DNA of 61,363 nucleotides, counting the filler, from Kipferlia bialata (Eukaryota), in the NCBI GenBank assembly GCA_003568945.1. It is 4 parts of 4 records of this genome, joined end to end, with 100 filler letters (N's around TTAATTAATTAA, not from the genome) between each part and the next. Parts side by side here need not be neighbours in the genome. Positions count along the whole stretch, not along the records: positions 57,057 to 61,363 come from BDIP01000367.1; 3 more parts are not named here. One strand, written 5' to 3'. Below the pieces are notes generated by a model that made no database searches, had not been told where the DNA came from, and saw nothing but the letters and a program-made list of their open reading frames with translations. The position numbers were made by a program, and so were the translations under genes. Below are positions 1 to 61,363 of this stretch, piece after piece. Within the stretch, counting starts at the first letter, position 1. The number at the start of each line of letters is the position of its first letter.

Positions 1-50
<50 letters not shown>

Positions 51-17907: not shown

Positions 17908-17952
<45 letters not shown>

Positions 17953-23908: not shown

Positions 23909-25121
23909 CTAAGCCACCTGGCAGATGTCTTCCATCTGGCCAGAGTCCTCACTCTCTGTATCTTCGTCTGATACGCCTGGCTCTCGATCAATATCCCAGG
24001 GGTGGTACGCAGGTGCCCATTCCAAGGACTGCACCCCATGGCACTCATCACTACAGACACCCTCAAACAGACACGTGTAGACGTGCAACTCCCTATAGTC
24101 CTTGAACCCCAGCACTAGGTGCATATCCTCCCACACACAGGTGGCAGAGTGAGGACGGGTGCGGGTGATGCCTCTCCGTAACAATGCCCACTCACCTGAG
24201 ACAGGGCTGAACAGCCATACCCTCCTTCGCAATCTGTCGAAACAGGAGTCATATGCAGCCACATACCTGGATCCCAGTCTCTCTATCACGCTTTGGGCAG
24301 ACAAGGGAGTGGGATACACACCCAATGTGTATGAGACAGGTCCCCCCTTAGACACTGTGGGTGTGGGGCAGAATGCATACATCAGAATGGCATGATCAAC
24401 AGCACTCCTTGTCAGCAGATAGGCTGTGTCACCTAGAGTCACAGTGTCAATGATTTCACAGACACTCTCCTTGTGTATCCTTGGGAGGGGTGGTCCCTCA
24501 CACCGCACCCACCCCAGGGATGGGTCTCTGGTGTCGAAGCAGGCCACACTCAGGGGCTGGGGGCCAATCATTGGCCAGTCAAAGGACACGTGATATACCC
24601 TATGTCCCACACAGATCACAACATCGCCACTGGGGGATGAGGAAGAGACATCATGTATCCAAACAGTAGCATGAGGTGTATAAACATTGTTGCGGTCATA
24701 CGCTACCACATGGTGACTGTAATGATACGCTGTTGCAGAACATCATGTGGTATAGAGAGGGGAGACATAGATACGCACACAAATACACATACCCACGCCA
24801 CCGCAGAGACGGGTGCCTTCCCTGGTACACTGTGTGCCACTCGAGGGTGTCCAGGGAGAGGCCTATCACAGAGGAGCCGGGAACACACGCATACACAACC
24901 CCATCGATACAGAACAGAGAGGCCTCTCTCAGATGGGTCAGCCACTGCAGGGTGTCCACATCGCTATCGATTGATACAGATCCGTCCCTGTCGACACTGA
25001 GGATGGAGCACAGACGACTGGCCTTGGTACGGCATGCCGACTCTCTGTTGAAGTGTTCTCTCTCTACAGCAGTCAGCAGCAGCACCCTGTTACCGCCCAG
25101 GGGCACAGCCTGTGTGCCCAT
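23909..25121 (-). CDS. Divergent kelch/beta-propeller-like protein (two ORFs joined by one intron; start uncertain)
   Basis: ORFs 24696-25121 and 23909-24709 with blade-like motifs (LSLDTLEWH, CVGHRVYH, FDTRDPSLGW, LGDTAYLL, FSPVSGEW). Confidence 0.55.
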
Positions 25122-25651
25122 CTCCCAGGGGTCACACCCGGCAGTGGAGACATTGAGGGAGGGAGACAGACCCCGACAGTGAGGGAGGAGAGGGGGGGAG
25201 GGAAGGGGGGGGGGGTAGAAAGTGTCACACCAGAATGGCCAAGAATTAGAGGAAGTAAATGGACGAGTCAGGCTTGGGCTAGTCAGAAGATAGCTGAAAT
25301 GAGACCCATTGTGGAATTCATTCTCAAAAGTATCCTATCCATTCCTACACGTGCATAACCCACGCAACAACTTGGTAGTTCCAACACACACCTTATTCAT
25401 GCATTCCGTGTTGTTTCAAATACTCCAGTCTTGGATAGAGGAGAGCGAGAGGAAGTGACCATCATGAATTTGGCATGTCCCTGAACCCTCAATCCGATAG
25501 ACCTAGTAATTCACAGTCTGTGAATCACAGACACAATGTCACAGGCCACTCTATTGTTGGACTAGAAGGCTACAGGGGACCCAATGTGGGGGTGTAAATA
25601 CAAAATAATAAAGAAATAACCCTCTGCCTCTCACCACTAAACAATACATGC

Positions 25652-31600: not shown

Positions 31601-32771
31601 TTCTGGCTGCTGTGCACCTGGGGGTAAGACAAGTGATACATATACATGCATGTTTATGTACATAGACCCACCTCCTGTCCGAATGTTGCCTCAGTCAGAC
31701 ACCCATACAGCCTGGAGAAGAACACGAGTCTGGGCGAGGAGGGGGGGTGGGGCCGGAGGGAGGGGGCACTGCAGAGCAAGGTGGGTGTGTTGGTACTGAC
31801 CCCCAGGTGTGGCTGCATGTCAAAGACCAAGAGGTAGTCTGGATACACACTGCACACAAGGTGTCTGCCGTCAGGAGCCCACTCCAGCTGCGTGGTCATG
31901 TGAGGGGGGTTGGAGGCGGGGGGAGGGCCAACGTCTGAGGGTGAGAGGTATAGCCATGGAGGAAGAAGAATGTGGGAGGGGGGGGGGGGGTCGCCCACAG
32001 GTTCTGCCTGATGGAACACAGAACATATACGTCTCCTCTCACCTCTGAATGAGCACAGCACGTGCAGGAGCAGGCCTGTCTGGCTGTCCCACACCTTGAC
32101 CACCCCCTCATCACACCCAGTGGCCAGGTACCTAAGGGTAAGAGAGAGTAGACTGATACTGATACTGATACTGATACTGATCACACCCAGTGGCCAGGTA
32201 CCTGGAGGTGAGGGAGGGGCACACTATACAGGGGTTGTATAGTACTATATGAACATACTCACATGCCGTCTGGGCTGAATGAGCTGGCAAAGACCGCCGA
32301 TCTGTGCCCCTTGAGCATGGCCAGGGGGACATGCCCCGAGGGGGAGGACGTACACACAGCCAGGGCCTGCGACACATCGGGGGAAAAGGTGAGCTCTGCG
32401 GCACACAGGATGCGGCTGGTGTGGGGGAGGGGGGACGGCATCCCCAGGCGCCTCCACAATACCCCCGACTGCAGACACCGGCTGGCATGCCTCTGTGTCT
32501 CCATCTGCTCTATCTGCCCCAACCGATATGCCTCCAGGGCAGCTGCCAGCTGTGCCACTGACCACTGTGTGGGGGTGTCTCGGGATGCCCTGTCTGACAC
32601 CATCAAGGTGTCCCCAGACTCAGACCCACCCTCATCGCTCGCAGACAGGTCAATCAGGTGCCGCAGAGACCCGTCCTCATCAGACACAGCTCGAACCAGA
32701 CCACCCAGCCTCTCGAGACCAGCCGAGAGAGAGAGATGGGGCGAGACTGGGTCTCCCCCACCTGGGCCCAT
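25652..32771 (-). CDS. BRWD/PHIP-like WD40-repeat and bromodomain protein, multi-exon
   Basis: N-terminal LKGHRSAVFASSFSPDG/RYLATGCDEGVVKVWDSQTGLLLHVL is a WD40 repeat like BRWD1/PHIP. PWTPVVGERV resembles YVPQMGDEV. C-terminal YSPVSTLARVPNYWEVVPLAADVSSVIVKLLAGQYY is bromodomain-like. Confidence 0.75.
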
Positions 32772-36185: not shown

Positions 36186-39100
36186 ATGATATGCGGCGTG
36201 ATAGTGACTCGAGCCGGTGTGAAGCCTCGGTCCATCGTGCTTGAGGTTGATGCCGCAAAGGGCACCATCACAGCTGAGCTGGTGTCCAACAGACTGAGGC
36301 AGACCACCGCTGTGCCTATCCCAGCTGTCTCCATACCCACAGATGTGTTGGGGTCCCCAGGTGTCCATCTACTGCATGTCAACGCCGACCCCGTGACTCT
36401 GTGCATGCTAAGTAGTGAGGTACCCAAGGGCCTGGTCTCAGAGGTGGCCTCTCTCAAGTGCAGCGTGTCCTGTGCGTGCTTTATACTACTACTGAGGTCC
36501 CTGTCCATCCAGAACATCCCTGCCATCGACAATGTGGCTCTGATCTCCCCTGCCTCCCTGCTGTTGTTATTGGGGTCTCTGTCTGGGACAGGTCCCATGG
36601 CCACTGAGGCACCCACCACACACAGGGGCAGGATGCACAACGCCACGCTGCTGCTAGACACCCTGCAGGGCATACTGGGCCCAGAGGTCTCGCTGAAGCA
36701 CATCGATACCCAGGTGAGGGTCACTTCATATATATGTCCTGTAGAGTATACTGCTATATGATCTGCAGTTCCGAGGTGGGGGGGGGGGGGAGTTACACGT
36801 AGTATGACGGTCACTCCCTCCCCTCTCTCCAAGAGTGACACTCCAATATTCTCTCTTCTCCCCATACCTCATCTTCTCTCTGTCTCACCCCCCAGGCCCT
36901 GTGTTCCCGTCATCCCTTTGCCATACTGTGTGCATTCGACATAGTGTACTCTCTGTTCCATGGACGGTTCCCAGACCTGCCCCAGCTACCAGAGTACAGG
37001 TGTGGCCGTGTGGATACTCTTTACTCATGAGTGTGTGATAGTTATATACCCCCTATACTCAATTACATACTCCAGGTATGTATTTACATTATATTTACAC
37101 GTCAGTGTATGATATGCCCCTATATATGAAGTCTCACCCCAGTGCCGCTGAGTTCACGTACATAGCCAAGTCTCAGCTGGCACCATCAGGAGAGGGGGAG
37201 AGAGGGGAGAGGAGGGAGAGGAGAGCACGTACACCCCGCAGGGGAGACAAAGGGCGTAGGGATACCACCCATACCCCTCGGTCACCGAGGGCGGGTAGGG
37301 AGACACGGCGGCGAACCCTGACCCCCCGCACCACTGACAGTCAGAGTGTGAGGCAGAGGCACAGCACCAGAGTCAGACATGGGGGGCATGGGAGGCATGG
37401 GAGGCATGGGAGAGAGAGTCTGGAGAGGGTGGCCAGGCGGTCCAGGTCTGTGTCTCTGCCTAGGGCAGGGTCGAGGGGCAGGGGTGGCAGAAGGGGGGGT
37501 AGGGCGTACAGGGGTGTACGTGATAGGTCCCAGTCTGCCTCTGTCCACAGGCCTAGCATGGGTAGGGGGAGGGGTAGGGAGTCGCCCTCCCTGCCCCGGG
37601 GTGCCAGACGGTCCCAGTCCCTCAGACCCCACTCAGCCAGGGTCAGTGGGTCGAGGGAGAGAGGGAGGGGGGCAGTGCGTGGCCGGAGGAGTGTCTCCCA
37701 GGGCAGGGAGTCTCTATCCCTGCGGCGTAGGAGGCCCCTCTCTCACTCAGCCAGAGGGGAGGGGGAGAGGTTCTCTGGCAGGAGTGTGTCTCTATCCAAC
37801 CCGATGAGGAGGGGAGAGAGGAGCAAGAGCAGGGGGAGGGGTAGACGGGGTAAGCCTCGCAGGCGTGTCCGGCGTACTCTGCATATGCCTGAGGGTGAGG
37901 GTCTGATGGATGCGCACCATGCTGTGACAGGGCAGAGGAGGGGGGGAGACATGCCGTCTCTGCCTGTCCTGAGGGATGTACTAGTAAGGGGGAGCAGGGG
38001 GGAGAGAGAGAGAGAGAGGAGGGACAAGGTGAGCATGAGTGTGGAGAGTGCTGCTGGGCTAGGGGGTCAGACGGTGGATGCACCAGCCAGTGATGCTGAG
38101 GGGGGGCACTCCCAGTCGCCTGAGGCACAGGACCTGTTCTCAGCTCATCCCTTACCAGCAGAGGCATCCATCAGGTAGGGGTGGATTGGGTATAAGAGTA
38201 TTGTGATACTCTCATCGTGTCAGTACTCATATGCCGAGACCCTTACTGCAGCATTGCAGGTATCAGTGTCATCTGTCAGTATCCAACACTCTCTGTATTG
38301 TCAGTATGTGTGAGTCTTATGTAAAGTATCATACGCATATGTACATGTACGTGTTCAGACCCCAGGGCCCTGTGGGGTGAGACCACCACCCAGGTCAGAA
38401 GGCAGGGGGAGAGGGAGAGAGAGAGAGAGAGAGAGCGGTCGGTGTCCCTAGCCAGGTCCAGGTCACCCTCCCAGCCACTCACACACGCAGAGAAGGTTCG
38501 ACATCTACATACATACTCACACATACATGTTCATTTGTTCATTCATATACCTTATGCTACCTCTCCCCTCTGACCCCCCAGGTCCAGCGAGCCAAGGACA
38601 GACGCATGCAACAGGACGTGGCCAGGTACAGGAAGAGTCTGCTGCTGGCCAGACAGAGTGCGGCTGAGCACCTGTACACATCACTCCTGAGGGAGGGGCT
38701 CAAGGTACAGAGTATATATATGTATGTATATATATATATACTGAGGGAGGGGCTCAAGGTATCGTCTATTGTTATATGTATATACCCTGAGGGAGGGGCA
38801 CAAGATGTGTTGCATGTTGTAACATAATGGTAGAATAGGTTGGAATATGTTTAGGATATGTGTCATAAATTTCTGCGGGTGAGGGGGCTCCAGGTGTTTT
38901 GGATGGAATGTTGATGCCAGTCCCACTCATCTCTCACACCCTCAGGTTGAGCGGCAGAACCTTGTGGACGAGGCCCACTGGTACAAGGATGAGTATGAGG
39001 AGAGGGAGAGAGAGACCCGGGTCAAGAAGGAGGCAGAGACCAAGAGAGAGAGCGACATCCTCAACATGCTACAGGAGACGGTGGAACAGGCCAGGTGGGT

Positions 39101-42238: not shown

Positions 42239-43796
42239 ATGAGTGCCAGTCAGCAGCAGGCGGCATTCTCGCTGAAGGCCCCCCCTGCTGGGGAGGTACC
42301 TGAAGGAGAGGAAGGGGCAGATGCCGAGCAGGCCAAGATGGACAAGCTGAGGAAGAGGCTGGAGATGACAGGGGAGCCCGAGGAGGGAGGTCCCAAGCGG
42401 AGGGGACCCAAGCAGGTGTGGGGTTGGATGCAGTGGGGTGTTACTAGTGCCAATACCTATAGTGCTCATACTCTATAATGTTAACCATCCCATACATATA
42501 CACCCACCCCCAGGTGGCAGAGGAGGAGAGGATGGTGCTCAAGGCCAGAGACTTCGAGATTGACTTTGACCAGCACATCGGTATGTATGTATATATATAT
42601 AGTTGTCGGTATTTGTTTCACTTTGTTACACAGTCATCTCTTGTGTACCATGTGTACACCACGTTCCATCATCATTGCATATATAGAGATGTATTTGTAC
42701 TTCGATTTCGCTGTGAATGTGTACGTCTCTCTCTCTCTCTCTCTCTCTCTCCCCCCCCCCAAAAAAAAAAACCCGAAGCATATTGTATATATTATCAGCA
42801 TCTCTCCTTCTGTGTGCATATCTATCCCAAACACCCCCATTCACCCCAGGCCGTGCCGAGGCCCTGTCCCTGGCATCCAGTCAGCAGCACAGCGGAGGAT
42901 TCAGGTGGGTGTCTATGTGTATGTGCCTTTGTGAGTATACATACACACATTGTCATCTCAGTGTTTGTATACTACTACGTATTCAGTGTGTTAGCCCTTC
43001 TGTCCATCCCTCCCATATCTCCCCCGTTGTCGGGTGTGACTGTCATATATACATATCACATCTCTCTATACACCCCTCTCACCCCCAGGTGCAAGGTGTG
43101 CAGGCTGACCTTCAAGGACAGTGCATCATACCTGGACCACATCAACTCGGACGAGCGTACGTGGATAAGTCCAAGTATATATATATATACCCAAGACTCT
43201 ACCCGTAGATGCCTCTCTTATCGTTCTCTTATTGCCTCTATGGATACATACATGTGTATAGTCCTCACCCCAGACCAGGGTGCTCTTGGTTTCCAGACCA
43301 CGGTGGAGAGAGTGTCTGCGGAGAAGGTATGTATTTGTGTGTGTATCTATATACAATGTATGACACATATGCTGTTTATTGTGTGTGCAGTGCTGATATA
43401 TGCTGACCTCAGGTCATATCCCGTATGTAGAGATCACTTACATGACATATGTATTCTATTACACATATCAATTATACAGTATCCAACCCCCCAGGTCATA
43501 GCCCGTGTCTATGATATACCCTATCATTACATACGTATACTAGTATTCATTGTCTTTGTATGCTGACCCCTTAGGTCATTGCCCGTATCAAGTACCACGC
43601 CAACCGGAAGAGGAAGGGCAAGACACTCGAGAGGAAGCTGAAGCAGATCAGGTGGGTGGATAGTGTATATATATGTATATCTATACATATAGATGTATAT
43701 ATATGTATGCTCAAGCAGATCAGGTGGGTGGATGTATGGATATATATACAGGTATATATATACATATATACAGATAGGTGTGTATATATATATACT

Positions 43797-43832
<36 letters not shown>

Positions 43833-44561
43833 ATATGTCCATATATACAGGTAGATGTATATATATGTATGCTCAAGCAGATCAGGTGGGTGTATATATA
43901 TATATATATACTGGAATATATATGTATATATATATATTTTATTATTCTCGATATATGTGTATGTATGCTCAAGCAGATCAGGTGGGTGAAGGCTTGTATG
44001 TGTGTATCCACTCCCCTAATAAGTGTATATATATGTATGTATATATGTTTCAGCATACTACCACAGTTCTCTTTTGCACAGCCCCTCACCCCCAGGGCCG
44101 ACGAGGAGGCCACCGTTATGAAGGCCACCTACTCGCACGAGAGAGAGAGAGAGAAGAGGCGGGACATGATCAAGTACCACGAGGCCAAGCTGAGGAAGAG
44201 AGAGGAGGACGAGGCGGCGGCCCTGGCCATCGCCAGCAGACCCGCCCCCGTTCCCCCCCAGAGGCCCCAGACCTTGCCCCCGATGGTCCAGCCGATGATG
44301 CCTGGCCTGGTGGATGAGACTGTGCCCATGGTGCAGCCGATGATGCCGCAGGACGTGTATGCCCCTCAGCCCCTGATGCCCATGGCCCAGCCCACCCCAG
44401 AGGACATAGAGAGGGAGATGGTCGGGATGGCACAGCCACACGTGCAGGCACAGCCCCTGATGCCTACTGGGCCGGGGGTGCCCATGGGTGGGGTGCCAGT
44501 GCAGCCGTACCCTGTGGGGGAGGGGTACCCCCAGGGACCACAGCCACCCCAGAGGATGTAG
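42239..44561 (+). CDS. ZMAT2: Zinc finger matrin-type 2 / Snu23 spliceosomal protein with Pro/Gln/Met-rich tail
   Basis: Spliced [15 protein letters not shown]...[25 protein letters not shown]...[18 protein letters not shown] matches the ZMAT2/Snu23 signature. Confidence 0.85.
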
Positions 44562-44921: not shown

Positions 44922-45241
44922 ATGAGTGACTCAGAGACATCTGAGGTATGTATGTATCTGTATTAACATATGGATATGTAGGCTGACACATGGCCCTCCT
45001 ACTTCTCTCTCTCTTTCCCTCTCTACGTATCCATCACTATATATATGTATATATAATCAATTCTGTATACTTATACCAGGACACCTCAGAGGATGACACC
45101 TGACTTTCCCACTTCTCTCTATGTGTGTCCATATCTATAGATCTCTCTCTCTATACATACTAACTCTAGGATACCTCTGAGGACGACTCCTGGTCCCCCC
45201 ACAACGCTGTCATTGTGACATTCGACGATGACGGTACGTAG

Positions 45242-45276
<35 letters not shown>

Positions 45277-48200
45277 ATCTGTCTCTCTCTCTGCCTCTCT
45301 GACAATGAAGGTGTTGTTGCAGACAAGGAGTGGTTCACACTCGACATAGGGATACAGGTACAGATATATATTTCTATATATATGTCTTTGTATTTTTCAA
45401 TTGTATATAGAGGCTGATATCGTGTGGTTCACTTTCTACAGTATGATCATACTCACCTCAGAGGAGTGACATGGAGCGTATTGTTCACAGAAAATTCCAG
45501 TTCACGTTCACTATCATCAATGCACTATGTCTATATTACTATATTCATTCTTATATGTGTGATCTTTCGTTACTCCCCAGAGGAGTGAGCACATCGATAC
45601 GTATTTTGTATTTTGTATTATATACTATATATTATATATAGATACGTATATACATTTGCTTTCATATCGGTTATTGTATGCATATATACACAGAATAGTC
45701 ATACTAAATCCAGAGATGCACTATATATACATACATACATACATATATATATGCTATATATACATACATATACACACTCACCCCAGAGGAGTGACATGGA
45801 GCACATCTATCTAGTATGCACTATATTTATATATACTATAGATATATATATATGCTATGTATTGATGTATATATACATCCTTATTCCAGAGGAGTGACAT
45901 GGAGCACACTGTCAAGGGCTACTCCATCGATGAGACCCACGTGATGCTGATGTGCATATCATGGTGGGTGGTGATATAGTAGACCCATACACTGACTCTC
46001 TATATAGATACCTATATGTATATACCTTATGTGATGCTGATGTGCATATCATGGTGGGTGGATGTATGTCTAGGGAGTGTATGCATGTAAAGTGACTCCA
46101 CTTCACTTTGTTCATATTTTATACTAGTTTCTTGATTCTATTAATGAATTATTATATCATTAATTCACTTCTTTGTCCCCTCTCTGACCAACCGCTACAT
46201 TATTATGTTCCCCCGCTCTGTCTCTCTCTCTCTCTCTATTCCTACTCACCCCTAGGCACAACTACTCTCTGACCAACCACTACATGTACACGCTGTGCCT
46301 GGACTCACTCGAGTGCCACAGGTATATATATACCAATAATCGATATATACACACACAGTTACTACTGAGAATGATATGTATTACATACAGTGGATCATCT
46401 AGCATTGTGCCTGGACACCCTGGGGTGTCACAGGTATACAAGTATATATATGTGTATGTATGTATATACTACTATATGTATGTACATACATGTCTAACCC
46501 ATAGACACACTCAAGTAGTCCATGCCGAGGGTGTATCTCAGCCCCAGCAGGAGAGACTGGGGAAGAAGGAGGGAGAGGGGGAGGGGGAGGGGTACCAGAG
46601 TGTCAACATGTGGAAGGGACAGCCCACACAGTTCAGGTATATAGAGTATATATACATACATAGATATATACGTATATATATATGGACATGTATGTGATAC
46701 TGATACTGATACATGTGGAAGGGGCAGCCCACACAGTTCAGGTATTGTTGTTTCATATGTATATACTACTATATGGACATGTATACTCTCTCCACTGTTC
46801 TTTCCCTCCTTCTCACCCCCTCAGGCTTGGTGACCGACTCATCCTGCTGGGCTAGACATACATATAGTACAGCACACACATATATATGTATATATGTGTG
46901 TATGAGTATGTATGTATGAGTATACTGAGATACTTACCCAGGCTTGGCGACAGGCTCATCCTGCTTGGCAACAGACAGCCCAGGTTCTCCGTCAAGGGAG
47001 AGGTACGGAACAGTAAGACGGTTTAGATATCAGTATAGGAATTGATATAGTGGATATTGTGACCACTATACCCCCTTTGTGGCACCACTCACCTGAAACC
47101 TTCCCTCTCATATCTCTCTCTATTCATTGATGTGTGTCTGTATATACTCTCGCTCACTCTATCTCTGCCTGATAGCTCACTTTCCCATTATCCTATTCTC
47201 TCTCTCTCTCTTATGCTAGAGCACCGTGAACTGGATATAGTAGCACCCTCTTCTAACAACAGCTCTGCGTGATGGCCCACTATCCCCCTATCCCAATCTA
47301 TCAACTCACTGAACATGTATACAACATGTATACTTGACCTATATCTGATATATCCAATATCAGCTCTGCATGATGGCCCACTGTCCCTCAGACGACACGT
47401 GGGAGAGGCTCACACCCCCACCTAAGGTAGGTGCACAGTGTATGATACATATGAGATATTTTTGAAAGTGTACAGTATTTATGCATTGATCCTATGATAG
47501 AGTCTGTGCAATGAGATTCGGTATATACACACACACTCTCTCTCTTTCCGAATATATATCGATGAAAGTACATGACCCTGACCCCCAGGCCATTATGGAG
47601 TCTATCAATGGCTATGGGTACCACTCCTCCTCACACTTGAGGTATCGGCATTGTCTCATATGTATGTATATCACATGAGGTATATGTCACTAAGGATCCT
47701 CAGAGTCTATTATGTGTGTTATATACACTAAGAGTGTGTACTGCTTGGCTATGGGTACCACTCGTCCTCACACCTCAGGTATCGGCATCGTCTTCTCACA
47801 GTATACATGTAGTATGATATCAAATTCAGGTAAGATCTCTCACTTCAGTGTGGGTGTGGTCGGTGACACCGCCTACTTCATCAAGAAGGAGAGTGACATG
47901 GGATACAGGTATGGTTTCAATACTTAACCTAAAAATGTATTGACACTATTGTATACACTAAATACAAGTAGTAATATATACTACATTCAGATGCACATTG
48001 AATTCTTAGTGAATATTTGATTCTCTTACTGTAGATACTCCTTTGATGAGGGATGGTCTGAGCAGTCTCTGTCTGGGGTCGGTCTCAAGCTGGAGAGGAG
48101 GAGTGGGTTCTTTAGACGAAATGGGGAGGTTAGTGTGGGTCCTTGTTAGTATGTAGCATCATTATGTGGGTATGTATTATCTTACATGTGGGTCAGTATT

Positions 48201-49052
48201 ATCCCAGAATGGGGACCCACCTGCCTAGACCCCCTGCTGACTCCCAGTATGCCCTCAATGTCATGGTGGGATTGCCACAGCACCTACTGCTACAGGTATG
48301 GGGACTGTCTACACTATATAGAGTACATCAAGGAACCCATCTCTATTTGCATTGTCGCCCTTATTTCGTTGTTTCTGTTTGGTATAGTCAGTCAGTATTC
48401 TGTTGTTGTCTCACCGTCAGAAGGCCGATTGGATCATCGCAGACCCCACCGACTACTACTCATGCCCATGGGAACAGCACTTGCACACATGGGACACGGT
48501 GTCTGAGGTATATACATATATATATATACATATGGTTAATAGTATCGGAGATTTGTAATATATGTGTGCTAATACCCTATTAATCCGTAATATCTCCATA
48601 GCACTTGTACACATGGGACACGGTGTCTGAGGCATTATTCTGCAATATAGTATCCCACACCTCTCTCCCTCTCACTAATGCCTTAGGCTTGGGCCGAGAT
48701 ACCCTTTTTGAAGGAGGACTATATGTGTCTCTGAGTGTGTATATGACTACATCTCTTCCTAATTAAGATGAATCACTGAGTGAACCGTGCTCCTCTTTGT
48801 ATAATGTACATAGACATTTATTGATTGCCAAACGGATTTCCTGATTGATTATAGGAATGGACCGAGATCCCCTTTGTCGGAGCGGACGGTGTCACCAAGG
48901 CCGAGTGTCCCCGTATGTCCATGGCTGTACCTCTGCAGCCCAACGGAGGTGCCGACTGTAAGTGGATAGTGTACAGGAATAACAGCTATGATCAGGGGAA
49001 TACCCAGAGTTCACCAGCTCTGTCTGTTATGGAGTTCTGGGAGAAGGAATAG
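44922..49052 (+). CDS. Kelch/beta-propeller-like protein encoded by many short exons
   Basis: ATG 44922 (MSDSETSE/DTSEDDSW...). Exons with MYTLCLDSLECH, VGVVGDTAYFI, YSFDEGWS, HLHTWDTVSE. Last exon 48857-49052 EWTEIPFVG...MEFWEKE*. Confidence 0.65.
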
Positions 49053-49267
49053 ACACACAGACTGTAGGTGTCAATGCGCTTAGACTGGTCACTGTATTTG
49101 TCATTAACTGTGTAGTATAATCTGTATGCTTTACAGTAATAGTAGTACTACTAACAACATGCCTACACACAACTGATACCCTCAAGAATAGAGATGACTG
49201 CAGTTGGTGCACACACCCTAGTAGACTGGCTCAACTCTGTAGTCCATCATCACACTGCCAACCACAC

Positions 49268-50257
49268 ATGTCTGATACAGTCCCAGTCCCCCTGTGGCAG
49301 GAAGAGCAGTGTGACTTTCCTCTCTCTGTCTTCCCCTTCAGCTGCTCTGGGGCCATCAAGACAGGGCACAACGAGGTGCTAGTGGAGTCATATGATGAGG
49401 ATAGACACCTAGTACTTGCCCTGGTGCGTCTACTCTCAGGTGGCACAGTTGAGAAGGAGCTTATTCAGAAGCCAGACCCTCAATTCAACACAGCCAAGGT
49501 GTATGGCGTGTGTCACTGGGGGGAGGTCTACATGTACACTCGTGATACGGACAGCACCCTCTATATACTTGATCTTGCTACACACAGTTGGCGCTCAGTT
49601 GATGCCCCATTGCACCTCGGACAGAGTGACAGGGTACAGAGGATACGGCAAGTGTCTCTTTGGCTTGGCCAGGTATGCCTCTTGAGTGACGGAGCAGATG
49701 TCGTGGTGGTTGGCATCCAGTGTGACCGTAGCACTAGTGACGGCTATATATACACAGTAGGCATGTGGTACTATAACCCTGAGAGAGGAGCAATGGTCTG
49801 TGCAGGAGGAGACACACACACCTATGAGGATAGGCCACCTTCACCCGTATTGTATTTACTAGATGGAGTCCGGTACCTTAGAGCGGGCACAGATGTGTAC
49901 AGCTACTGCGACATTGGGCAGTGGACACTAGTACCTGAGTCTGAGTTAACAAGCGGCAATGGATTAGCTGGTTTGTACCCAGTACGCGATTCATGGGGTA
50001 AGTCTATAGTTCTGGCTCCCCTAGAGAGACGCTTCTCAAGGGGCATATTCTGTGCAGCCTTTGATACAGTGTCATCTCAATGGAGTCTGTTGGGACATAC
50101 ACATGAGGATAGATACGTCCTTTTCACCCCCGCTAATGCACTCTGGTGTGGGGATAGGGATGGGTCTGTGATGCGGTATCTGGACGGTGGCCTAGTATAC
50201 CCCCACGAGTCACGTCTGTGGGCCACAGATCCAGGCAACAGCCGACTCTTGGAGTAG
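49268..50257 (+). CDS. Intronless kelch-like beta-propeller protein, 329 aa
   Basis: Single ORF with motifs GEVYMY...LYILDLATHSW, YYNPERG, FDTVSSQW. Confidence 0.6.
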   Translation: MSDTVPVPLWQEEQCDFPLSVFPFSCSGAIKTGHNEVLVESYDEDRHLVLALVRLLSGGTVEKELIQKPDPQFNTAKVYGVCHWGEVYMYTRDTDSTLYILDLATHSWRSVDAPLHLGQSDRVQRIRQVSLWLGQVCLLSDGADVVVVGIQCDRSTSDGYIYTVGMWYYNPERGAMVCAGGDTHTYEDRPPSPVLYLLDGVRYLRAGTDVYSYCDIGQWTLVPESELTSGNGLAGLYPVRDSWGKSIVLAPLERRFSRGIFCAAFDTVSSQWSLLGHTHEDRYVLFTPANALWCGDRDGSVMRYLDGGLVYPHESRLWATDPGNSRLLE

Positions 50258-50739: not shown

Positions 50740-50927
50740 GGAGTCGGATATATGACCAAGGGTGTACGTGCCTGTCCCTAACAGTACCCCTGCAGCATAA
50801 GGGAGGTGCTGAGGCAGCTGACTGTAAGTGCATAGTGTACAGGAATAGCAGCTGTGGGCAGCAATGCACTCAAGGCTCGCCAGCGCTATCTTTCATGGAG
50901 TTCTGGTATTCAGAAGCCACAGAATAG
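50740..50927 (+). pseudogene. Paralogous fragment of the last exon of the 44922-49052 gene
   Basis: Protein-level similarity to exon 48857-49052; no upstream exons seen. Confidence 0.5.
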
Positions 50928-51717
50928 AGACACAGAGATTATGTGAAGTCATTGCATATGCAAAGTATACAGTTTGCACCAGCTTTAAGACTGATACCCT
51001 CACGTCCAAAGGGATGACTACAGTTGGTGTTGACTCTCTACTAGACTGCCTTAGCTTTCTTAGATTGATACAAACACATCACTACACCCTTTTTCTTTTA
51101 CCTCCGGTGCAATGGGGAGGGGGGGGGGGGTCACTATATGTAGTGTCGGGAAGGAGGGGGAGAAAGGGGTGGGGGAGACGCTGACACTCTTATGGACCCA
51201 CAAGAGGTGATCTGATATCTGCGGTGGGGATGGGACAACAGGACATCTAGGAGTCCAATCACACGGTGTAGAGACTCACATCAAGTTCTGAACCTATACA
51301 CATTCGAAAGCCCGGAACATTCTAGGAATCGTATCAGAGTAGATACGGCTTCTTGTCTATGCTCTAGAGTCTATGGTATTGTCCACGCTGTGTTGAACTA
51401 GCAGTTGTATAGTATAGGGTATCCCGTGTATCTTTCCTCACGACTGAAAGGTTTGATTTTACTCCTTTACTCACTCCGTCTACACGGATTGGTTATGGCA
51501 AGTCTCACTCTTGAGCCGCCCACTAACACTACTTGGGGTTACTGAGAGAGTATTTTCGCTGTCCTGGGCAAATATCTCATGTAGGTGCAATTTCTCAGCG
51601 AGAAAAAGGGTTTTCGAGCATCCACACAACTGAACAGAGCTCCACTTGCACGTTGCGTGCATATGGAGCCTGAGAGGAAAGACTCGGTTCCCGATGCGTC
51701 TCTAGGACTCACATAAG

Positions 51718-52903: not shown

Positions 52904-54340
52904 ATGGAGGTAGCAGTGGCTGCTCTGAATGCAGACATTGGTGGAGGGCCCAGTGAAGTGGAGGTGAGTGGTGTGTACGAAGAGGACTCAATATAGGTCT
53001 GATACGTCATGTATTGTTCGTCACCCCCAGTCACCGTGTTGTCTCTGTTACGACCCCGACTCTGACCCTCTGACTATGGGGTGTGGCCATGTGTTCTGTC
53101 TGGGGTGTATGACAGCATTGCTGGAGGGGAGGTACGGGGTCTGACTCAGATAGTATACATACACACAAAGTCATAACACAAATCTCCACATTGGATTTGA
53201 TAGGTCCTGCCATGTGTCATATACACAGGTGACCAGAGTCATCCTTCACAATTGTTGAATCAACATAGGCTCTCACATTGTATTATACAATGATTGTATA
53301 TCTATCTTATATACACAGGTGGTATGGCCGGTCGGGTGCCAGGATCAGCTTTGGCTTCATGGGGTGTCCCATGTGCCAGAGTGATATATCAGGTCACCCT
53401 GTCTTGGATACACTGATGGCACCCCTTGTCACACTCAGAGAGAAGGTGCACAGGATGGCAACAATGAGACAGGTGTGTATACGTATATCCTGTATATATT
53501 GAGTAATGCATATGTTAACGAGATAGACCTGAGTACATCATATTACTCAATATTTTGAGACAAAGAAGAGAATATGTCTCCTTGTCACACTATTACACGG
53601 TGTAAATAGTGTATACATTAGTGCAACATACACTCTATAGGCAATACGTCACTGTACGGTTACCCTAACCCGTCAGCAGATGGAGCATGGCAGTGGGTCA
53701 GTGTCCGATGCCATCAGGGAGTATGCATACTACCAGTGCCACAGGTCGGTTGCAGTAGAGTAGGGTAGTGTTATTGTAGTATCTCTTTGAGCATCCTCCC
53801 GGAGGACCCCCGCGATCCACAAGCATTATATGTAGTAACTGTAGGTGTGCTGAGCCCTACTATGGAGGTGCAGTGGAGTGTGCCGCAGGGAGTGAGACAG
53901 AGTACAACCAGGATGACCTCACATGCCCTAGGTATACATACTGAATCTAGTAGATCAATAGTGTCTATATTCTCAGTGTATTACTACCTACTGGCCGCAG
54001 AGTCATCACCTAACACAGGTGCACCCGTCTTCAGTCCCCCACCTCCCTCCCTGACACCTGTTCCTCCCACGGCACAGACTACATCCAGTGGAAGTGCAGG
54101 TACTGCTGCAGTATGGCAGTGTTCTTCTGTTTCGGCACCACCCACTTCTGCGTCGAGTGCCACAACAACTACAGCAAGTGTCAGGCAGCAGAGAAAGCGG
54201 GTACCCTACCCCCATGCCCTGCTGGCCCTGTACTAAATGGCCTAGCTGGAGAGTGTCCATTGGGATGTGCCCACCCCCCCACAGGCAGTGAGTTCTGCAT
54301 GGGGTGTGCAGAATGCAGACTGAAGGAGGAGGACTACTGA
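52904..54340 (+). CDS. Small MYCBP2/Highwire/RPM-1-type RING-Cys-relay E3 ligase domain protein
   Basis: Spliced CCLCY...GCGHVFCLGC...ARISFGFMGCPMC (RING), then YAYYQCHRCAEPYYGGAVEC...HGTDYIQWKCRYCCSMAVFFCFGTTHFCVECH...HPPTGSEFCMGC, closely matching the PHR-family C-terminus. Confidence 0.9.
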
Positions 54341-54573
54341 GTATAGCACTATTTTTCATACACAATAAATGATAGTCCATAATGGACACGAATACGTTCA
54401 ACACTTGGAGAATGACACATATACGGAACGGGATGTACCGAGTGCAGACTCAGGGAGGAGGACTACTGAATAGTAATAGAAACATGATACACTAACCACT
54501 GGATAAGTGACCTATACGGATCATTCTATTACATATCTACATTTCATTTCATCAACACACACTCCTAAGGGGC

Positions 54574-55994: not shown

Positions 55995-56956
55995 ATGATC
56001 CACACTCACCGCAGCCAGGGCCTCTGCCAGAGGCTTAGGGAATGGTGTCAGGGCATGGCCAGCAGCCAGTGCCTCAGTGAGTGAGAGGACTGCCTGTGCC
56101 CCCTCCTCAACAAGTGAGGCATGGAGGGGGGTGTCGATGCTGCCACACAGGATGCCATCCACCCTGGGGTGAGAATGAGAATGACCACATACAATATTAA
56201 GGAATACTAAGGTAAAATATAGCAGGGTAGGTATAGCCATACCTGTCGTAGACCTCCAGCAACACTCCCCCTGCCACACTACAATACTATACTTACGCTG
56301 AAGACAGCAAACATGTACTAGGGAATGTGTGTGCAGCCATACCTGTCGTAGACCTCCAGTAGCACTCCCCCTGCCACACACACAATGGAGGGACAGAGGG
56401 GGGCAGAGTCTACGGACACAGATGCCCTATCTGCTGTCTGGGCCAGTGAGACCAGCTCGGTAACCCACCCAGCGGCATGGAGGGGGGCAAAGTGGCCTGG
56501 TATATAAGAGAGAGTGACGACACACATATGTATACAACACATTGCCACAAAATAGAGATCTACATAAATATACACGTATGTATATATATCATATAAACTA
56601 CTCTACATACACACACATACCGGGGGCAGGTGCCTCTGGGAATGTGCTGAATGGCAGTGTGAGTCTAGACACTGATAGGGCAGAGGAGAGAGAGAGGTGC
56701 ACGGGGATGCGGCTGGCAGGGATAGACATGACACGGGAGATGAACTCGCCTGGGGGTTAGGGATGCTGTCAGAGTGGCCTACTGACCACCGCTGTCTCTC
56801 CCTCACTTTCTCTATGTATATATTCCACAGCTGTATAGACATACTTCTCCATTACCTGAGTCTGCTGCAAGTGCTGTGAGGGTGGCCACCACGGCTGTCC
56901 TGAGTCTGGCATCCACATGGGGGGCAGACAGGACAAGCCTATGTATTAGACATGAG
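54574..56956 (-). CDS. Hypothetical multi-exon, Leu/Ala-rich helical protein; 5' end cut by contig edge
   Basis: GC-rich exons flanked by ctcacccccag acceptors and gt donors; last exon within ORF 54574-55230. Confidence 0.5.
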
Positions 56957-57056: not shown

Positions 57057-57108
<52 letters not shown>

Positions 57109-57123
57109 CCCTCTGACCCCCAG

Positions 57124-60100
57124 GATAGTCAGGGACAGGGCAGTGGCACTCTATGTAGACATGCACGGACACTCTAGGTATTGTACAGATCAGTGTATGT
57201 ATTATGTTCAATACCAATGAAGTGGAGTGTTATCGCCACAGCAGACGTGTTCCTCTCTCCCTTACTCCAGGCGCAAGAACGTCTTCATGTATGGGTGTGA
57301 CAACAAGAGAGACCCGGCACTGCTGCACTACGAGAGGGTTCTTCCCAGGTACATTTAGTAAGTATATGTAGTATATATAGAGGATTGAATATTCACATGT
57401 TGATATCTCATCTCGCTGTCTCTCTGTCTCTCTCTCATTCTCTTTCTCTCTGCACCCTTACCCTAAGGATCCTCGATGACTTTGGCCCCTCCTTCAACTA
57501 CGAGGATTGCACGTTCAAGGTATATACGACTAGTCATCAATAATATATGTATATATGTATGTATGTATGTATATTAACTACCTAGTATATATGCTATACT
57601 CTATAGATACATCCTTCAACTACGAGGACTGTACATTCAAGATATGGGTATGTGTGTATATACTAAGTGTATACTATACTCTATATTCTTTCCTGCATAC
57701 TAGTTCTAAGACATATATCTAATACATATATCTAATACATATTAATGCAGCGTAACAAGGAGGGCACTGCCAGGCTGGTTGTCAACACTATATATTATTC
57801 CTCATATATGTCACATATATATAGTATTCTATATTAGATGCTAGTGTAATACGTATGCTCATACCAGATGCAGCGTAGCAAGGAAGGCACCGCCAGACTG
57901 GTTGTGAGTATAGGATATACACTCTTCATATATTCTTATGTATATGATATACTATCCATACTAACCCTCTAGATGCAGAGGTCTAAGGAGGGCACCGCCA
58001 GACTGGTTGTTAGTGTGTATATATATATATACATATCCAACATGAGTTGGATCCAATATACTCTGTACTGTATACTATGTATCATCTTCTTATACCAGAT
58101 GCAGCGTAGCAAGGAGGGCACCGCCAGACTGGTTGTGAGTATATACATATACATACTCTCCTCTCCCTATTTATTAATGTATGTATATAAATATATACCC
58201 ATACCAGATGCAGCACTCTAAGGAAGGCACCGCCAGACTGGTTGTCAGTATATGAGTATATACCATACTATCCAATACCATATGTATTATGTATATATAT
58301 ACTAACTGTAGATGCAGCGTAGCAAGGAGGGTACAGCCAGACTGGTTGTGAGGAAGGAGTACAACGTGGTCAACTCCTTCACCATGGAGGCATCGTTCTG
58401 TGGGACAAATCAGGGTATGTATACCCTCAATGTATTCTATTTGTGCTGCGTATGTGTGTGTACTCCGTGTTGTGACTCTCAGGCAAGTACTGTGACATTC
58501 AGTTCAACGAGGCTGATACATGCATATCCCGATACAACGCATATAGAGACATACTTACTGTATATTATGAGCATAAGTGATTATATACTAACCCCCCAGG
58601 CAAGTACTGTGACGTCCAGTTCAACGAGGCTGTTATTTGTATATATACCTATATCAAATAGTATATACATATATATATATATATAAGAATACTTATACAT
58701 CTATGTACTTATCATCAGGCAAGTACTGTGACATCCAGTTCAACGAGGCTGATGTACATATACATTTAAATAGTTTTACTGTTATAGTAATATGTGTGAA
58801 TACATACTCTAACTCCTAGGCAAGTACTGTGACATCCAGTTCAACGAGGCTGCCCTGATGGAGATGGGGGCGGCATTAGGTATATATAGTGTATAACTAT
58901 AGTATAAATATATAGAATAGTATACAATAGTATGTGGATCATTATTTCTTAGATCTATTTGTATATATATTAGAGGCTGCCCTGATGGAGATGGGGGCGG
59001 CACTAGGTACAATATGTATTGTACAAAGAATAGTATATATAGGGAGAGAGAGATAGAGAGAGAGTGGCCCTGATGGAGATGTGGACGGCACTAGGTATAG
59101 GGATACAATCTTTCACATATTGTCAGAATATTCAATTCTCTCTCTCTCTCCCCCCCTGTACACCCTAATATACTAGGCAAGGCCATTCTGCACTCCTTTC
59201 CTACTCCGTCCTTCTCTCTCTCTCTCTCCCTCTCTACACCCTTTAATCAATCAGGCAAGGCCATCCTGCACTCCTTTGCCACTGACACCACCCCCGGTGA
59301 TGCTGCCACTGATCTATCACACCCTGGTGTGCCCCCTCTAAGTGAGGCTGGTCGAGAGGTATGTACTAGTGTATTGTATATATTAATATTATATAATGTA
59401 TGTAGCATATATATACACTGACCTCTCCCACCCTGGGGTACCACCCCTGTCTGAGGCTGGTAGAGAGGTATACATACTATGTATATAGTATAAGTATACT
59501 ATAGTATAGTATATATATAAGAATAGTATATATGTATATATATATACACTGACCTGTCGCACCCTGGGGTGCCTCCATTGAGTGAGGCTGGGAGAGAGGT
59601 ATGCATATATACTAGTGTATATATATATTTTTACATTTATAAGGTGCCACCATTGAGGGAGGCTGGTAGAGCGGTATTGACTCTCTTTCTCTCTATCTCT
59701 CTCTCTCTCTCTACACTCTTTACCCCAGGTTCTCAACACCATCCGGACTGAGCTCCAGCGGACAGCAATGAGGAAGGAGGAGGAGGTGTGTATAGATTTA
59801 TATATGTGTGTATTCTAAAGTGGGTATTGTTTATACTGTGTATATACTATTATGTATGTACTACTATACATATGGAATATATAACTCCAGCGGACAGCTA
59901 TGAGGAAGGAGGAGGAGGTGGGGTGTATAGATTCATTAATATATGTTTGCTTCCTATAGTGTCTACCATACTCTTACTCTCTAGGTTGAGCCCATCGATG
60001 ACTCCGACTCAGAGTCTAGTATGTATATATATATCCTATATATATGCCAGGTTCCTATCTATATATCTATATATACATATATATACATATATATACATAT

Positions 60101-61363
60101 ATATATACATATATATACCTGTATATACCACTCATACTAGGTAGAGCCCATCGATGACTCCGACTCTGAGTCTGATGAAGAGCCAACAATCAGAGACCAG
60201 ATCAAGGTATATATACCCCAGAACGCTAAACGATAAACTTTCTATACTAAACGGCAGAGACCAGATCAAGGTAATAGGTATATATGCCCCTATATATACC
60301 ATGAAACGCTAAACGCTAAACGCTAAACGGCAGGGCAAGAAGGGCAATACCCCCCCACCTGATGCTGACACCCCTGCTGATGATGTCAACCCATACGAGG
60401 TGCTGGACAGTCTATCTTCCCTGCAGGTATGTACAAGGATGTATATATATATATATTCGTACTTTACAGTATATAAGTATATATATATACCCCTGCTGAT
60501 GATGTCAACCCCTATGAGGTGCTGGACAGCCTGTCCTCCTTGCAGGTATGTACATACACATATATATGTGTATATATGTATGCATTTGCTGGACTGTAGA
60601 ATCTACTGTAGTTGTATTGTTAGTGGCTACTTACTCCCTAGGTGGCCCTCAAGAGAGATTATATGTATAATAGTGAGTACTATAATGTATACTCTATATA
60701 TATGTAGTATAATAGTGCCTATTCTAACCCTAGGCCGCTCTCAAGAGAGACACGTCCAAGGACAAGTAATATTTTATGATATATACACACGTGTGATATA
60801 TTTAATGCTATTTCTGACTCTCTAGGCCGCCCTCAAGAGAGACACGTCCAAGGACAAGAAGATTGTATTCACAATAGTGTCTATTATATTATATACTGTG
60901 TATGTAGTATATTAGTGCCTATTCTGACACTCTAGGCCGCCCTCAAGAGAGACACCTCCAAGGACAAGAAGAAGAAGAAGAAGGCAAAGAAGGAGAAGGT
61001 ATCTATTGTACAATGTATTATACGTTTATAGTCACTTGTGTCACTGTATATTACATACGCATATTCTCTCTCTCTCTCTCTCTAGCCCCTTATTGTCAGG
61101 CTGCCAAGAAGAAGAAGAAGGTCAAGAAGAAGGAGGAAAAGGAGAAGGAGAAGGAAATGGAGGTATGGGATATATAAGTAATATGTATATATGTATATAT
61201 ATGTGTGTAGAGAGAGAGAGAGGGAGAGAGAGATAGAAGAAGGTGAAGAAGAAGGAGGAGAAGGAGAAAGAGAAAGAGAAGGAAATGGAGGTATGGGACA
61301 TATATGTTAGTATATATCTATAGAGAGAGGGGGGGGGGGGGGGGGAAGAGGAAGAAAAAGAAA
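57124..61363 (+). CDS. Cytosolic carboxypeptidase (M14D, CCP/AGBL/Nna1 family, tubulin deglutamylase type), partial; Lys/Glu-rich tail
   Basis: Spliced LYVDMHGHSRRKNVFMYGC...ERVLPRIL...FNYEDCTFKMQRSKEGTARLVV...NSFTMEASFCG...FNEAALMEMG shows the Zn-ligand HGH and catalytic FTxE motifs of CCPs. Confidence 0.92.
57610..61300 (+). repeat. Intronic tandem copies of exon edges in most introns of the CCP gene
   Basis: ATGCAG...GTTGT x6 (57745-58350); GCAAGTACTGTGAC..CAGTTCAACGAGGCTG x4 (58483-58852); GCCCTGATGGAGATG x3; GAGGCTGG.AGAG x4; GCCCTCAAGAGAGA x4 (60640-60965). Confidence 0.95.

Follow-up and report, generated by a model that had tools for sequence, protein, structure and literature searches.

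The stretch of DNA analysed here (the window, 61,363 nucleotides including filler) joins four contigs of Kipferlia bialata, a fornicate protist and free-living relative of Giardia. The gene at its 3′ end encodes KIPB_002289, a cytosolic carboxypeptidase (CCP), whose relatives are named cytosolic carboxypeptidase 2 and carry PF00246. Translation of the spliced 11-exon model yields a protein identical letter for letter to residues 1-264 of P0001. The exons through 60427 lie within one spliced contig without a single difference, and the last two exons are based on P0001 and splice signals only. All four contigs of the 61-kb window were scanned for echo copies, i.e. copies of exon edges. A Pfam scan of three proteins gave no significant family.

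The CCP gene contains 23 exon-edge copies, which lie in 7 of the 10 complete introns and in the region 3′ of the last exon (Table 1); introns 57178-57270, 57349-57467 and 60999-61099 hold no copies. With one to five copies per edge, this agrees with the earlier note, which had claimed such copies for most introns of this gene. Also as claimed there, all 13 acceptor-side copies are located upstream of their own exon and all 10 donor-side copies downstream of theirs, and the splice site said to be attached is kept in 12/13 copied acceptors and 9/10 copied donors, so that 21 of 23 are intact. Each copy represents one edge only and comprises 16-57 nt of exons that are 52-104 nt long, with an identity of 77-100%.

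Table 1 Exons of the CCP gene and exon-edge copies in the window. Exon numbers in the CCP copy rows start at 0 (exon 2 = 57468-57519, exon 10 = 61100-61162)
Feature	Position	Strand	Remark
CCP gene fragment, 11 exons	57124..61162	+	translation = P0001; relatives named CCP2, holders of PF00246
CCP exons, first six	57124-57177, 57271-57348, 57468-57519, 58312-58414, 58820-58879, 59255-59358	+	
CCP exons, last five	59729-59785, 60141-60206, 60334-60426, 60936-60998, 61100-61162	+	
Exon 2 end, donor-side copy	57612..57641	+	3 silent changes; GT lost
Exon 3 start, five acceptor-side copies	57745..58248 (57745, 57868, 57973, 58099, 58208)	+	in cis in X1 contig
Exon 4 start, three acceptor-side copies	58483..58751 (58483, 58600, 58719)	+	each 33 nt, common end base
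Exon 4 end, two donor-side copies	58973..59094 (58973, 59067)	+	outer one with 2 replacements
Exon 5 start, acceptor-side copy	59177..59200	+	intron flank visibly homologous to real flank, 55/69 bases
Exon 5 end, three donor-side copies	59416..59673 (59416, 59547, 59644)	+	
Exon 6 end, donor-side copy	59885-59917	+	
Exon 7 start, acceptor-side copy	59985-60017	+	
Exon 7 end, donor-side copy	60255..60270	+	CAG joins copy to second version of same intron
Exon 8 end, donor-side copy	60489..60545	+	19 codons: 6 silent, 0 replacement
Exon 9 start, three acceptor-side copies	60642..60862 (60642, 60734, 60826)	+	shorter going outwards
Exon 10 end, donor-side copy	61235..61290	+	extra in-frame Lys-Glu; aligned by eye
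12 copies in 8/13 introns of unnamed gene 44922-48734	45080..48631	+	open frame and splice signals are the sole basis of the exon model
Five copies around exon 43575-43651	43413..43981	+	
Copy of a gene's last 13 codons and stop codon, past the stop	54430..54469	+	3 silent, 2 replacement

Break points are shared inside the CCP arrays by 4/5, 3/3 and 2/3 copies. The common end base of the exon 3 copies is found in four of five; AGC is changed to TCT in two of them and CGT to AGG in one, four lie between AG and a donor-like GT, and the outermost one is without AG. The inner donor-side copy of exon 4 starts within the same 7 bases in which the acceptor-side copies of this exon end. At the end of exon 5 the copies 59416 and 59547 differ from the exon in 10/17 and 9/17 codons, all silently and including an AGT to TCT change, and the outermost copy (59644) is shorter and carries 2 replacements. 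The exon 7 copy at 60255..60270 could form a 13-nt micro-exon, which is skipped in the spliced contig.

Two further data sets were available, X1, a short-read assembly which may stem from the source sample of the window itself, and X2, which is presumed to be RNA and contains one plainly spliced record. A 1,143-nt contig of X1 covers 57586-58655 (1,070 bases) without differences at a depth of 456, with neighbours at 428-453. Seven copies are thus present in cis in a 1,070-base unitig of normal depth, and the earlier note's concern that alleles had been concatenated does not hold for this region. Unbranched X1 contigs of single-copy depth and without differences also cross the junctions at 58823-59062 and 59724-60050, and X1 has no cover at 60071-60352 and 60917-61320. 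The spliced X2 contig contains only the main exon copies, joined past all echo copies up to exon 8 with 0 differences. This finding of normal splicing refers to one contig, with rare forms, which assembled contigs drop, and the last two exons outside its coverage. X2 has no cover in bins containing only copies, which by itself is not evidence. The main exons are whole in the spliced contig and in P0001, and the contig shows no new intron or exon.

Over 22 of the 23 CCP copies (250 codons) we counted 61 synonymous versus 8 replacement codon changes, corresponding to pS 0.374, pN 0.026 and a ratio of 0.069; the uncounted exon-10 copy has 3 more silent changes by eye. The changes are overwhelmingly silent, as had been stated in the earlier note, but not all of them are. 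Three sequence examples given for this bias were found with all their changes, two of them starting 1 nt away from the position given: GAT TGC ACG at 57490 versus GAC TGT ACA at 57612, six changes at 60370/60489, all silent, and GTA/GTT and TCT/TCA at 60141/59985. Nine silent changes alter two or three bases of a codon, among them two independent AGY/TCN serine switches, and thus speak for long selection instead of point decay. The end of exon 5 differs from the copy read at 59417 by 10 silent changes and from that at 59548 by 9, the two copies differ from each other by 8, and replacements are 0 throughout. The implied silent divergence is 0.37 raw and 0.52 corrected. No direction towards GC or AT was found among the silent changes (27 vs 22, p 0.57).

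The whole window holds 44 counted copies over seven genes, with 81 silent versus 19 replacement codon changes. Excluded from the counts were the exon-10 copy (in-frame 6-nt insertion), the coding repeats 19934/20700 and 44280/44325, and a third, decayed copy close to 38845 with a 3-nt deletion seen by eye. A simulated null of neutral duplicates leads to 75 expected replacements and one of sister duplicates to 61 (minimum 46); none of 2000 runs reached the observed 19 in either case. The nearest copies alone give 47 silent versus 10 replacement changes (null minimum 23), and unique variants alone 59 versus 19. These simulations together with the pN/pS of 0.069 support the earlier inference that the copies were recently under protein-level selection. 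Outside the CCP gene the silent bias is weaker (20 vs 11), and exons and copies were told apart there by open frames and splice signals only. Some copies in gene 44922-48734 have replacements only (47263: 0 silent, 2 replacement). The three donor-side units behind exon 43575-43651 (array 43710-43968) are plain, near-identical tandem repeats (87/100 bases) with one common silent change. The copy at 54430..54469 possibly represents, judged from its sequence, a coding/UTR edge in place of a splice edge.

The intron flanks of the copies retain splice signals, yet as different variants, and past the first 5 bases their identity to the real flank is 0.2-0.5. Intron pieces of the same edge are weakly related (p 0.002, with pairs that are not independent). 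The junctions at 59885 and 60255 are suggestive, with acceptor-like scores of 7.6 and 9.3; overall such scores were not above a matched null, the donor side giving p 0.56 and the acceptor side a weak p 0.04 from non-independent data. A model in which every unit corresponds to an entire intron closed by a junction resembling a splice site was rejected, as its donor side fails the matched null. Scoring microhomology at the junctions requires the template sequence.

Replacements were found in 8/66 codons of the outermost copies versus 2/166 elsewhere (Fisher p 0.0008 in a comparison devised post hoc, after the data had been seen), while the silent rate is similar by rank (12/66 vs 41/166). Lost splice sites and replacements are located in outermost copies, and inner copies with a replacement occur in 2 of the 5 CCP arrays. 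Because replacements cluster in the outermost copy, the copies appear to age outwards. Outside the CCP gene the same contrast (2/19 vs 0/26) is not significant on its own (p 0.17). If the break lay within the intron and the copy were the foreign sequence, the youngest copy should be farthest out; the observed order is the opposite, and this model was discarded.

As a chromosome offers a single position for each exon, two versions of an edge can, as we reason, both have been constrained at the protein level only if they were alleles or paralogs or if the copies were translated. We see about an even chance that each copy once functioned as an exon edge in a strongly diverged allele or a sibling lineage and was pushed into the intron by recombination, probably by one-sided invasion and joining by polymerase theta. 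Since no second allele was found, we infer both source and mechanism. Of the models proposed in the earlier note, this displacement by a diverged allele fits best, with replacements and lost splice sites in the outermost copies; a cassette reservoir and unusual splicing find no support, given a spliced contig that uses main exons only and outer copies that decay. A source of two haplotypes in an ancient asexual was rejected, because the end of exon 5 exists in three or more versions that have all diverged silently from one another.

In the proposed sequence of events, strains differing at about one third of silent sites would meet in one nucleus, and because their introns would be barely alignable, only exons could pair. 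After a break within an exon, one end may invade the other allele, aided by the mismatch-tolerant Dmc1, and copy the foreign exon edge together with its splice site and a further 45-120 intron bases. The new strand would not anneal in register and would be joined to the untouched end by microhomology, making the foreign edge exonic, while the old edge and its splice site would come to lie in the intron. Survival is expected only for events crossing a boundary, since these preserve the frame. Repeated events and out-of-register homologous exchange between copies on different alleles could enlarge the arrays and spread a single junction through them, hence the common break points. Decay would then be greatest in the copy most distant from the exon, as observed, and the spliceosome would pick the outermost pair of sites, i.e. 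the real ones, as seen in one contig. The copies themselves would be functionless.

The repair enzymes expected for this route are listed in the literature: as given in excerpts of PMC8516963, metamonads are without Ku and DNA-PKcs, and Fornicata have lost Rad51A and retain Dmc1; an excerpt of its Supplementary Data 2 lists PolQ, Spo11, Msh2 and four Dmc1 gene models for K. bialata. Literature abstracts describe Dmc1 as tolerating mismatches, and in a Schizophyllum cross with 14% divergence crossovers favour exons (PMC4209137, excerpt). At 85% likeness, X1 and X2 contain no alternative letters that would indicate a donor allele. No second Kipferlia protein occurs among proteins of 147-469 residues, where the next match has 51%, and a metagenome scan for a close strain found none, 4 of 587 candidate stretches being relatives, all at 49%. 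The silent divergence exceeds the highest within-population value that we found measured, 0.20 (excerpt of PMC4576712), which counts against alleles. The genome paper interprets the k-mer peaks of K. bialata as diploid, an awkward fit for a hyperdiverse outcrosser that shows no heterozygosity here, and the literature consulted contains no demonstration of sex in this species.

It is rather unlikely, in our view, that the copies go back to old duplications by slippage or unequal exchange, the inner ones having later been overwritten with exonic sequence by out-of-register conversion or crossover between alleles. The same pool of diverged alleles would be required; one-sided invasion and polymerase theta would be unnecessary. 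The common break points, the plain tandem repeat at 43710-43968, the relatedness of same-edge intron pieces and amphioxus clusters, which according to published excerpts turn over and spare the outer unit, are in line with this. However, the single copies 57612, 59885, 59985 and 60489 have already diverged by silent changes only, beside a different intron version, and whole copies would have to be overwritten frequently up to the junction; by eye, junction ends show no accumulation of replacements. Tandem duplication within a single lineage followed by neutral decay, with the bias due to selection on the real exon alone, is the usual reading of mirages (see below) and would suit the replacement-only copies in gene 44922-48734. 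It predicts a pN/pS of about 0.5 or more, and the CCP value together with the simulations rejects it for this gene; moreover, the copies differ silently among themselves. As a general explanation we hold it to be very improbable.

If the copies were translated somewhere, in rare splice forms, another life stage or by programmed swapping of DNA cassettes, selection on the protein would keep them. The nearly perfect amino acid sequences of the inner copies (2 replacements in 166 codons), the intact splice sites, the AG and GT around four exon 3 copies and the loss of rare forms from assembled contigs would fit. Still, this is improbable: the spliced contig corresponds to the main copies up to exon 8, no GT-AG route for an edge swap exists, with donor-side copies mostly lacking an acceptor and exons lacking a matching inner site, outer copies decay, and one copy includes a stop codon and sits past the gene end. 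Diverged paralogs elsewhere in the genome, acting through ectopic conversion, would explain silent-only divergence without sex and could hide in a fragmented assembly. At least three protein-identical paralogs would be required for each of seven unrelated genes; no protein above 51% was found among those of 147-469 residues, none above 66% among those of 73-2000 residues sharing exon 3, and no variant exon contigs at 85%, which makes paralogs a highly improbable source. An assembly that strung together alleles or strains via (TA)n tracts is conceivable insofar as only short reads exist, contigs break at repeats, X1 is possibly the same sample and two stretches have no X1 cover. We regard its chance as close to negligible, as the second assembly of public reads crosses junctions unbranched, at single-copy depth and without differences, and the junction sequences are unique and so require real reads.

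Contrary to the earlier note, which knew of no description of such a pattern, tandem copies of exon-intron boundaries that leave splicing undisturbed have been reported as mirages in amphioxus Adh3, the globins BflGb6/BflGb9, troponin C and PGBD5 (excerpts of PMC3087553 and PMC3902484). Excerpts of PMC3087553 describe units of 10-160 bp on either exon side, many of which keep AG/GT and the outer of which is most different, and call the origin unclear. The number of mirage units can vary among haplotypes or cells. The CCP gene resembles them in units spanning the boundary (23), duplication of both 5′ and 3′ boundaries (13 acceptor-side, 10 donor-side), mostly kept AG/GT (12/13, 9/10) and normal splicing of the host mRNA (one contig up to 60427). 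In contrast, mirage units are 81-100% identical overall and evolve in concert, an identity like that of minisatellites which only the 43710-43968 array reaches in the window, whereas the Kipferlia flanks have an identity of only 0.2-0.5 past the first 5 bases, as many as 10/17 codons of the exon part are recoded without amino acid change, and copies occupy 7/10 introns of the CCP gene and occur in seven genes within 61 kb. The layout itself is known, and the Kipferlia case differs in copy density, near-saturated silent recoding and barely alignable intron parts. A silent bias or a link to alleles is not remarked upon in the excerpts of PMC3087553 and PMC3902484; our literature search for a description in Kipferlia or for such a bias returned the amphioxus papers only, and the original mirage paper (Canestro 2002) may discuss it. 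In the part of supplement 4 of PMC3087553 that shows the BflGb6 alignment, mirage units D3-D5 have 6 codons that differ silently from the exon and none with a replacement, and at 3 of these 6 they carry the exon state of the other haplotype (both by eye).

In intron gain by internal or tandem duplication (the Rogers model; Gao and Lynch; summary in an excerpt of PMC3087553) the duplication is likewise intragenic, takes in a splice site and is masked when the transcript is spliced, but in Kipferlia the duplicate is absorbed into an existing intron, the copies are not sisters and the exon structure is unchanged. Mutually exclusive tandem exons duplicate the whole exon with both splice sites, and either copy enters the mRNA; the Kipferlia copies have one edge, and the contig contains main copies only. 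One-sided invasion or aborted synthesis-dependent strand annealing with end joining, and templated insertions by polymerase theta, are known from induced breaks and cancer genomes. There too, an end that copies a template and is joined out of register leaves a short direct duplication with template-derived sequence; the Kipferlia case would differ in that the process would recur in the germ line, at the edges of exons, and use a diverged allele as its template. Co-conversion during homing of group I introns brings a foreign exon edge with silent changes together with foreign intron sequence through break repair, but that process is driven by an endonuclease and overwrites the old edge, whereas in Kipferlia the old edge is kept and no mobile element was seen.

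We tentatively suggest, with less than even confidence, that the introns of Kipferlia serve as a continuing archive of alleles, in which a cryptically sexual population with a silent diversity of about 0.3-0.5, above the published values we found, stores old edges genome-wide and in time order by a Dmc1-only, Ku-less repair, and that mirages as a class are traces left when highly diverged alleles recombine. If the allele reading is wrong, the silent bias demands translated copies, which would be stranger still. The gene also offers a natural splicing experiment, as many as four consecutive intact acceptors being passed before the real one in an organism whose spliceosome is reduced to 87/174 proteins (excerpt of PMC6679479). 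If the allele reading is right, mirages would have a testable cause and are predicted to track allelic diversity. One genome would then sample, for each exon edge, a number of alleles in order of age, and sex, diversity and repair mode, which are hard to observe in Fornicata, would therefore become readable without a population sample.

The CCP gene lies in the last (57057-61363) of the four contigs, which are joined by N-linkers in the window, and holds the main finding. An 11-exon model yields a translation that agrees exactly with residues 1-264 of P0001 (268 residues), the Kipferlia bialata protein KIPB_002289 in NCBI naming, whose relatives go by the name cytosolic carboxypeptidase 2 or have PF00246. 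The genome of K. bialata, a free-living fornicate, contains 124,912 GU-AG introns, and the accessible text of the genome paper makes no mention of intronic exon copies (PMC5874029). Each exon was scanned against its flanking introns, which revealed 23 copies of exon edges, 13 of exon starts and 10 of exon ends. All 13 starts lie upstream and all 10 ends downstream of their exon, and copies are present in seven of the ten complete introns, in line with the earlier note, as well as in the stretch past the last exon. The exon part comprises 16-57 nt and the attached intron piece 45-123 nt (median 72); the copied splice sites are intact for 12 of 13 acceptors and 9 of 10 donors. Exon-edge copies in this gene are thus confirmed.

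A 1,143-nt contig of X1, a public DNA sequencing run, contains seven copies and exon 3 and matches 57586-58655 with 0 differences at a depth of 456; five further contigs are exact at depths of 428-453. Since this long piece is exact at the depth of its neighbours, the copies do not look like alleles concatenated by the assembler. No alternative letters are listed in the X1 contigs over the locus. These contigs leave 5 of 30 bins uncovered, the whole gene being spanned by no single piece, and X1 possibly stems from the same sample as the window, which makes it a second assembly and not a second sample. In X2, a run presumed to be RNA, a 1,645-nt record in eight listed pieces corresponds to the main exons up to 60427 with 0 differences. 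The exon pieces adjoin one another, and a 52-nt listing gap equals the length of exon 2. Therefore the transcript joins across the copies with main-copy codons, as seen in contigs, which hide rare splice forms. The CCP copies are real DNA and are spliced out.

Across 22 CCP copies, which total 250 codons, 61 synonymous codon changes stand against 8 replacements (pS 0.374, pN 0.026). A further 22 copies in six other genes, with frames taken from open reading alone, show 20 silent and 11 replacement changes in 150 codons. Two null models were run 2000 times with the base differences per copy held fixed: either every change was random and placed in the copy, or, for a sister duplicate, the exon accepted silent changes only and the copy any. 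All 44 copies, short, from seven genes and in many cases not independent, carry 19 replacements, compared with means of 75 (random) and 61 (sister duplicate) and minima of 59 and 46. The predominance of silent differences and the former protein-level selection on each copy, both put forward in the earlier note, are borne out by these counts. With only the nearest copy per exon (27 copies) 47 silent and 10 replacement changes remain (null minimum 23), and with each variant counted once 59 and 19. At the end of exon 5, a linker outside the protein part common to relatives, 10/17 codons of one copy and 9/17 of another deviate from the exon, all silently; between these two copies 8 codons differ, with no amino-acid change. 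In nine silent changes two or all three bases differ within the codon, including AGC>TCT, AGT>TCT, CGT>AGG and AGG>CGA.

A diagonal scan of the window identified six further genes with exon-edge copies, which lie between 32107 and 56379 and occupy both strands; by motif we take these copy-bearing genes to include a WD40-like gene, a Snu23-like zinc finger and a MYCBP2-like RING end, the last presumably being the RING/B-box-like gene in the table. If no intron follows the stop codon of this gene, copies would mark coding/non-coding edges and not splice sites.

Selected exon-edge copies outside the CCP gene
Feature	Position	Strand	Description	Gene
Terminal-codon copy	54301-54469		last 13 codons and stop codon, 129 nt downstream, silent-biased	RING/B-box-like
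Donor-side copy series	38687-38865		identical, then one replacement and GT lost, then 3-nt deletion (last by eye)	
Acceptor-side copy	32107-32216	minus	single copy, 0 changes in 7 codons	
Donor-side copy	56235-56379	minus	single copy, one two-base silent Leu change	

The same scan found no exon-edge copies in 1-19,700, where a very long gene (800-17530) has, by eye, some 30 short introns that are not of the (TA)n type, and few TATA runs. Per 2 kb, TATA occurs 3-11 times in this gene and 55-105 times in genes rich in copies; the genome thus harbours introns of two styles. The following gene (18000-22233) has a VWA-like start, many cysteine-rich repeats (CxxC-type, by eye) and a 159-nt coding repeat spanning an assembly gap; it possibly encodes a surface protein. 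Ahead of the 47263 copy, a possible extra short exon-like stretch (47221-47290) that follows the acceptor at 47220 was left out of the gene model there. Dispersed similar stretches (48850-49110 and 50760-51060, by eye) bracket an intronless 378-codon ORF (49121-50257) resembling intronless, presumably kelch-like ORFs at 23909-25334; the segment is possibly mobile or recently duplicated.

Once out of the exon a displaced copy is neutral, so in a single lineage its neutral time is at least as long as its silent-only time; for single-lineage duplication pN/pS should not go much below 0.5. If both versions were constrained, both were exons simultaneously, as alleles, paralogs or translated copies. 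Paralogs of the CCP exons were not found in DNA contigs, RNA contigs or protein databases. Translation of the copies finds no support, and the spliced X2 contig with its main-copy codons speaks against it. In the intron flanks of the copies, branch-point and AG or GT signals persist as different variants; beyond 5 bases the identity of these flanks to the real flank is 0.2-0.5, and kinship among intron pieces of one edge is weak. Together, copies and flanks resemble the exon-intron junctions that distinct working alleles would have, with exon 5 pointing to three or more such alleles. At 60207-60333 a branch-point-like heptamer forms short internal repeats, and two diverged intron versions flank a 16-nt copy; this intron appears to be the clearest example of two of its alleles standing next to each other.

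In nine arrays of at least two copies, replacements affect 8/66 codons in outermost versus 2/166 in inner copies (p 0.0008), by a test devised post hoc on alignments already seen; silent rates are similar. The CCP arrays alone give 6/47 versus 2/140 (p 0.004), the others 2/19 versus 0/26 (p 0.17), and the sole lost CCP acceptor belongs to an outermost copy. This order fits an entry of new material at the exon that displaces old edges outwards. Intron breaks adding the newest copy farthest out are argued against by the concentration of replacements in outermost copies.

For the displacement we infer that, in a hybrid of diverged strains, a break within the exon would lead to one-sided invasion of the other allele, copying through the splice site and out-of-register joining via microhomology. 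Unequal homologous exchange would afterwards enlarge the arrays with junctions preserved, as suggested by break points common to several CCP arrays and by exon 4, where the end of the upstream copies coincides with the start of a downstream copy. Compared with a matched null, junctions resembled splice sites no more than expected on the donor side (p 0.56) and weakly more on the acceptor side (p 0.04, with copies not independent). The repair enzyme set would fit: according to the accessible text of PMC8516963, metamonads are without Ku and DNA-PKcs, Fornicata have lost Rad51A and retained Dmc1, and K. bialata gene models include PolQ, Spo11, Msh2 and four Dmc1 (supplement). Dmc1 tolerates mismatches (PMC8682777, PMC6719624, PMC7809202), and in a 14% diverged fungal cross crossovers were located in exons (PMC4209137). 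A plain duplication that exchange between alleles refreshed afterwards would explain the copies nearly as well as one-sided invasion; that one of these two allele-based readings holds appears quite probable to us. The repair from a diverged allele proposed in the earlier note is partly supported, by the allele-type divergence and the outward order; the donor allele itself was not found, a second allele being absent from the DNA contigs, RNA contigs, protein databases and metagenomes searched. The CCP locus must be haploid or homozygous. K-mers of K. bialata show two peaks, interpreted as diploidy (PMC5874029), and Carpediemonas is considered haploid (PMC8516963). The silent divergence implied by the copies (0.37 raw, 0.52 corrected) exceeds the value of 0.20 for Schizophyllum commune (PMC4576712); the donors could therefore have been sibling species or have been spread over a long time.

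Contrary to the earlier note, which knew of no description of this pattern, the layout has been described as amphioxus mirages, tandem duplications of 5′ or 3′ exon-intron boundaries (PMC3087553, PMC3902484). In the accessible text of PMC3087553, their units measure 10-160 bp and are 81-100% identical, splicing is unharmed, outer units escape homogenisation and the mechanism is called unclear. The Kipferlia copies share this tandem layout. Mirages, however, are alike over the whole unit, a similarity that the Kipferlia copies fail to show, which would make them a variant working like a mirage. A literature search, with the original mirage paper outside its coverage, returned neither a description of silent bias in copies of this kind nor any protist case. 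The layout was known already; the silent signature and the density are new. In the amphioxus globin gene BflGb6, units D3-D5 show 6 codon differences from their exon; every one is silent, and at 3 of the 6 the unit has the exon state of the other haplotype (PMC3087553 supplement 4, by eye), a hint that the allele reading may be general to mirages.
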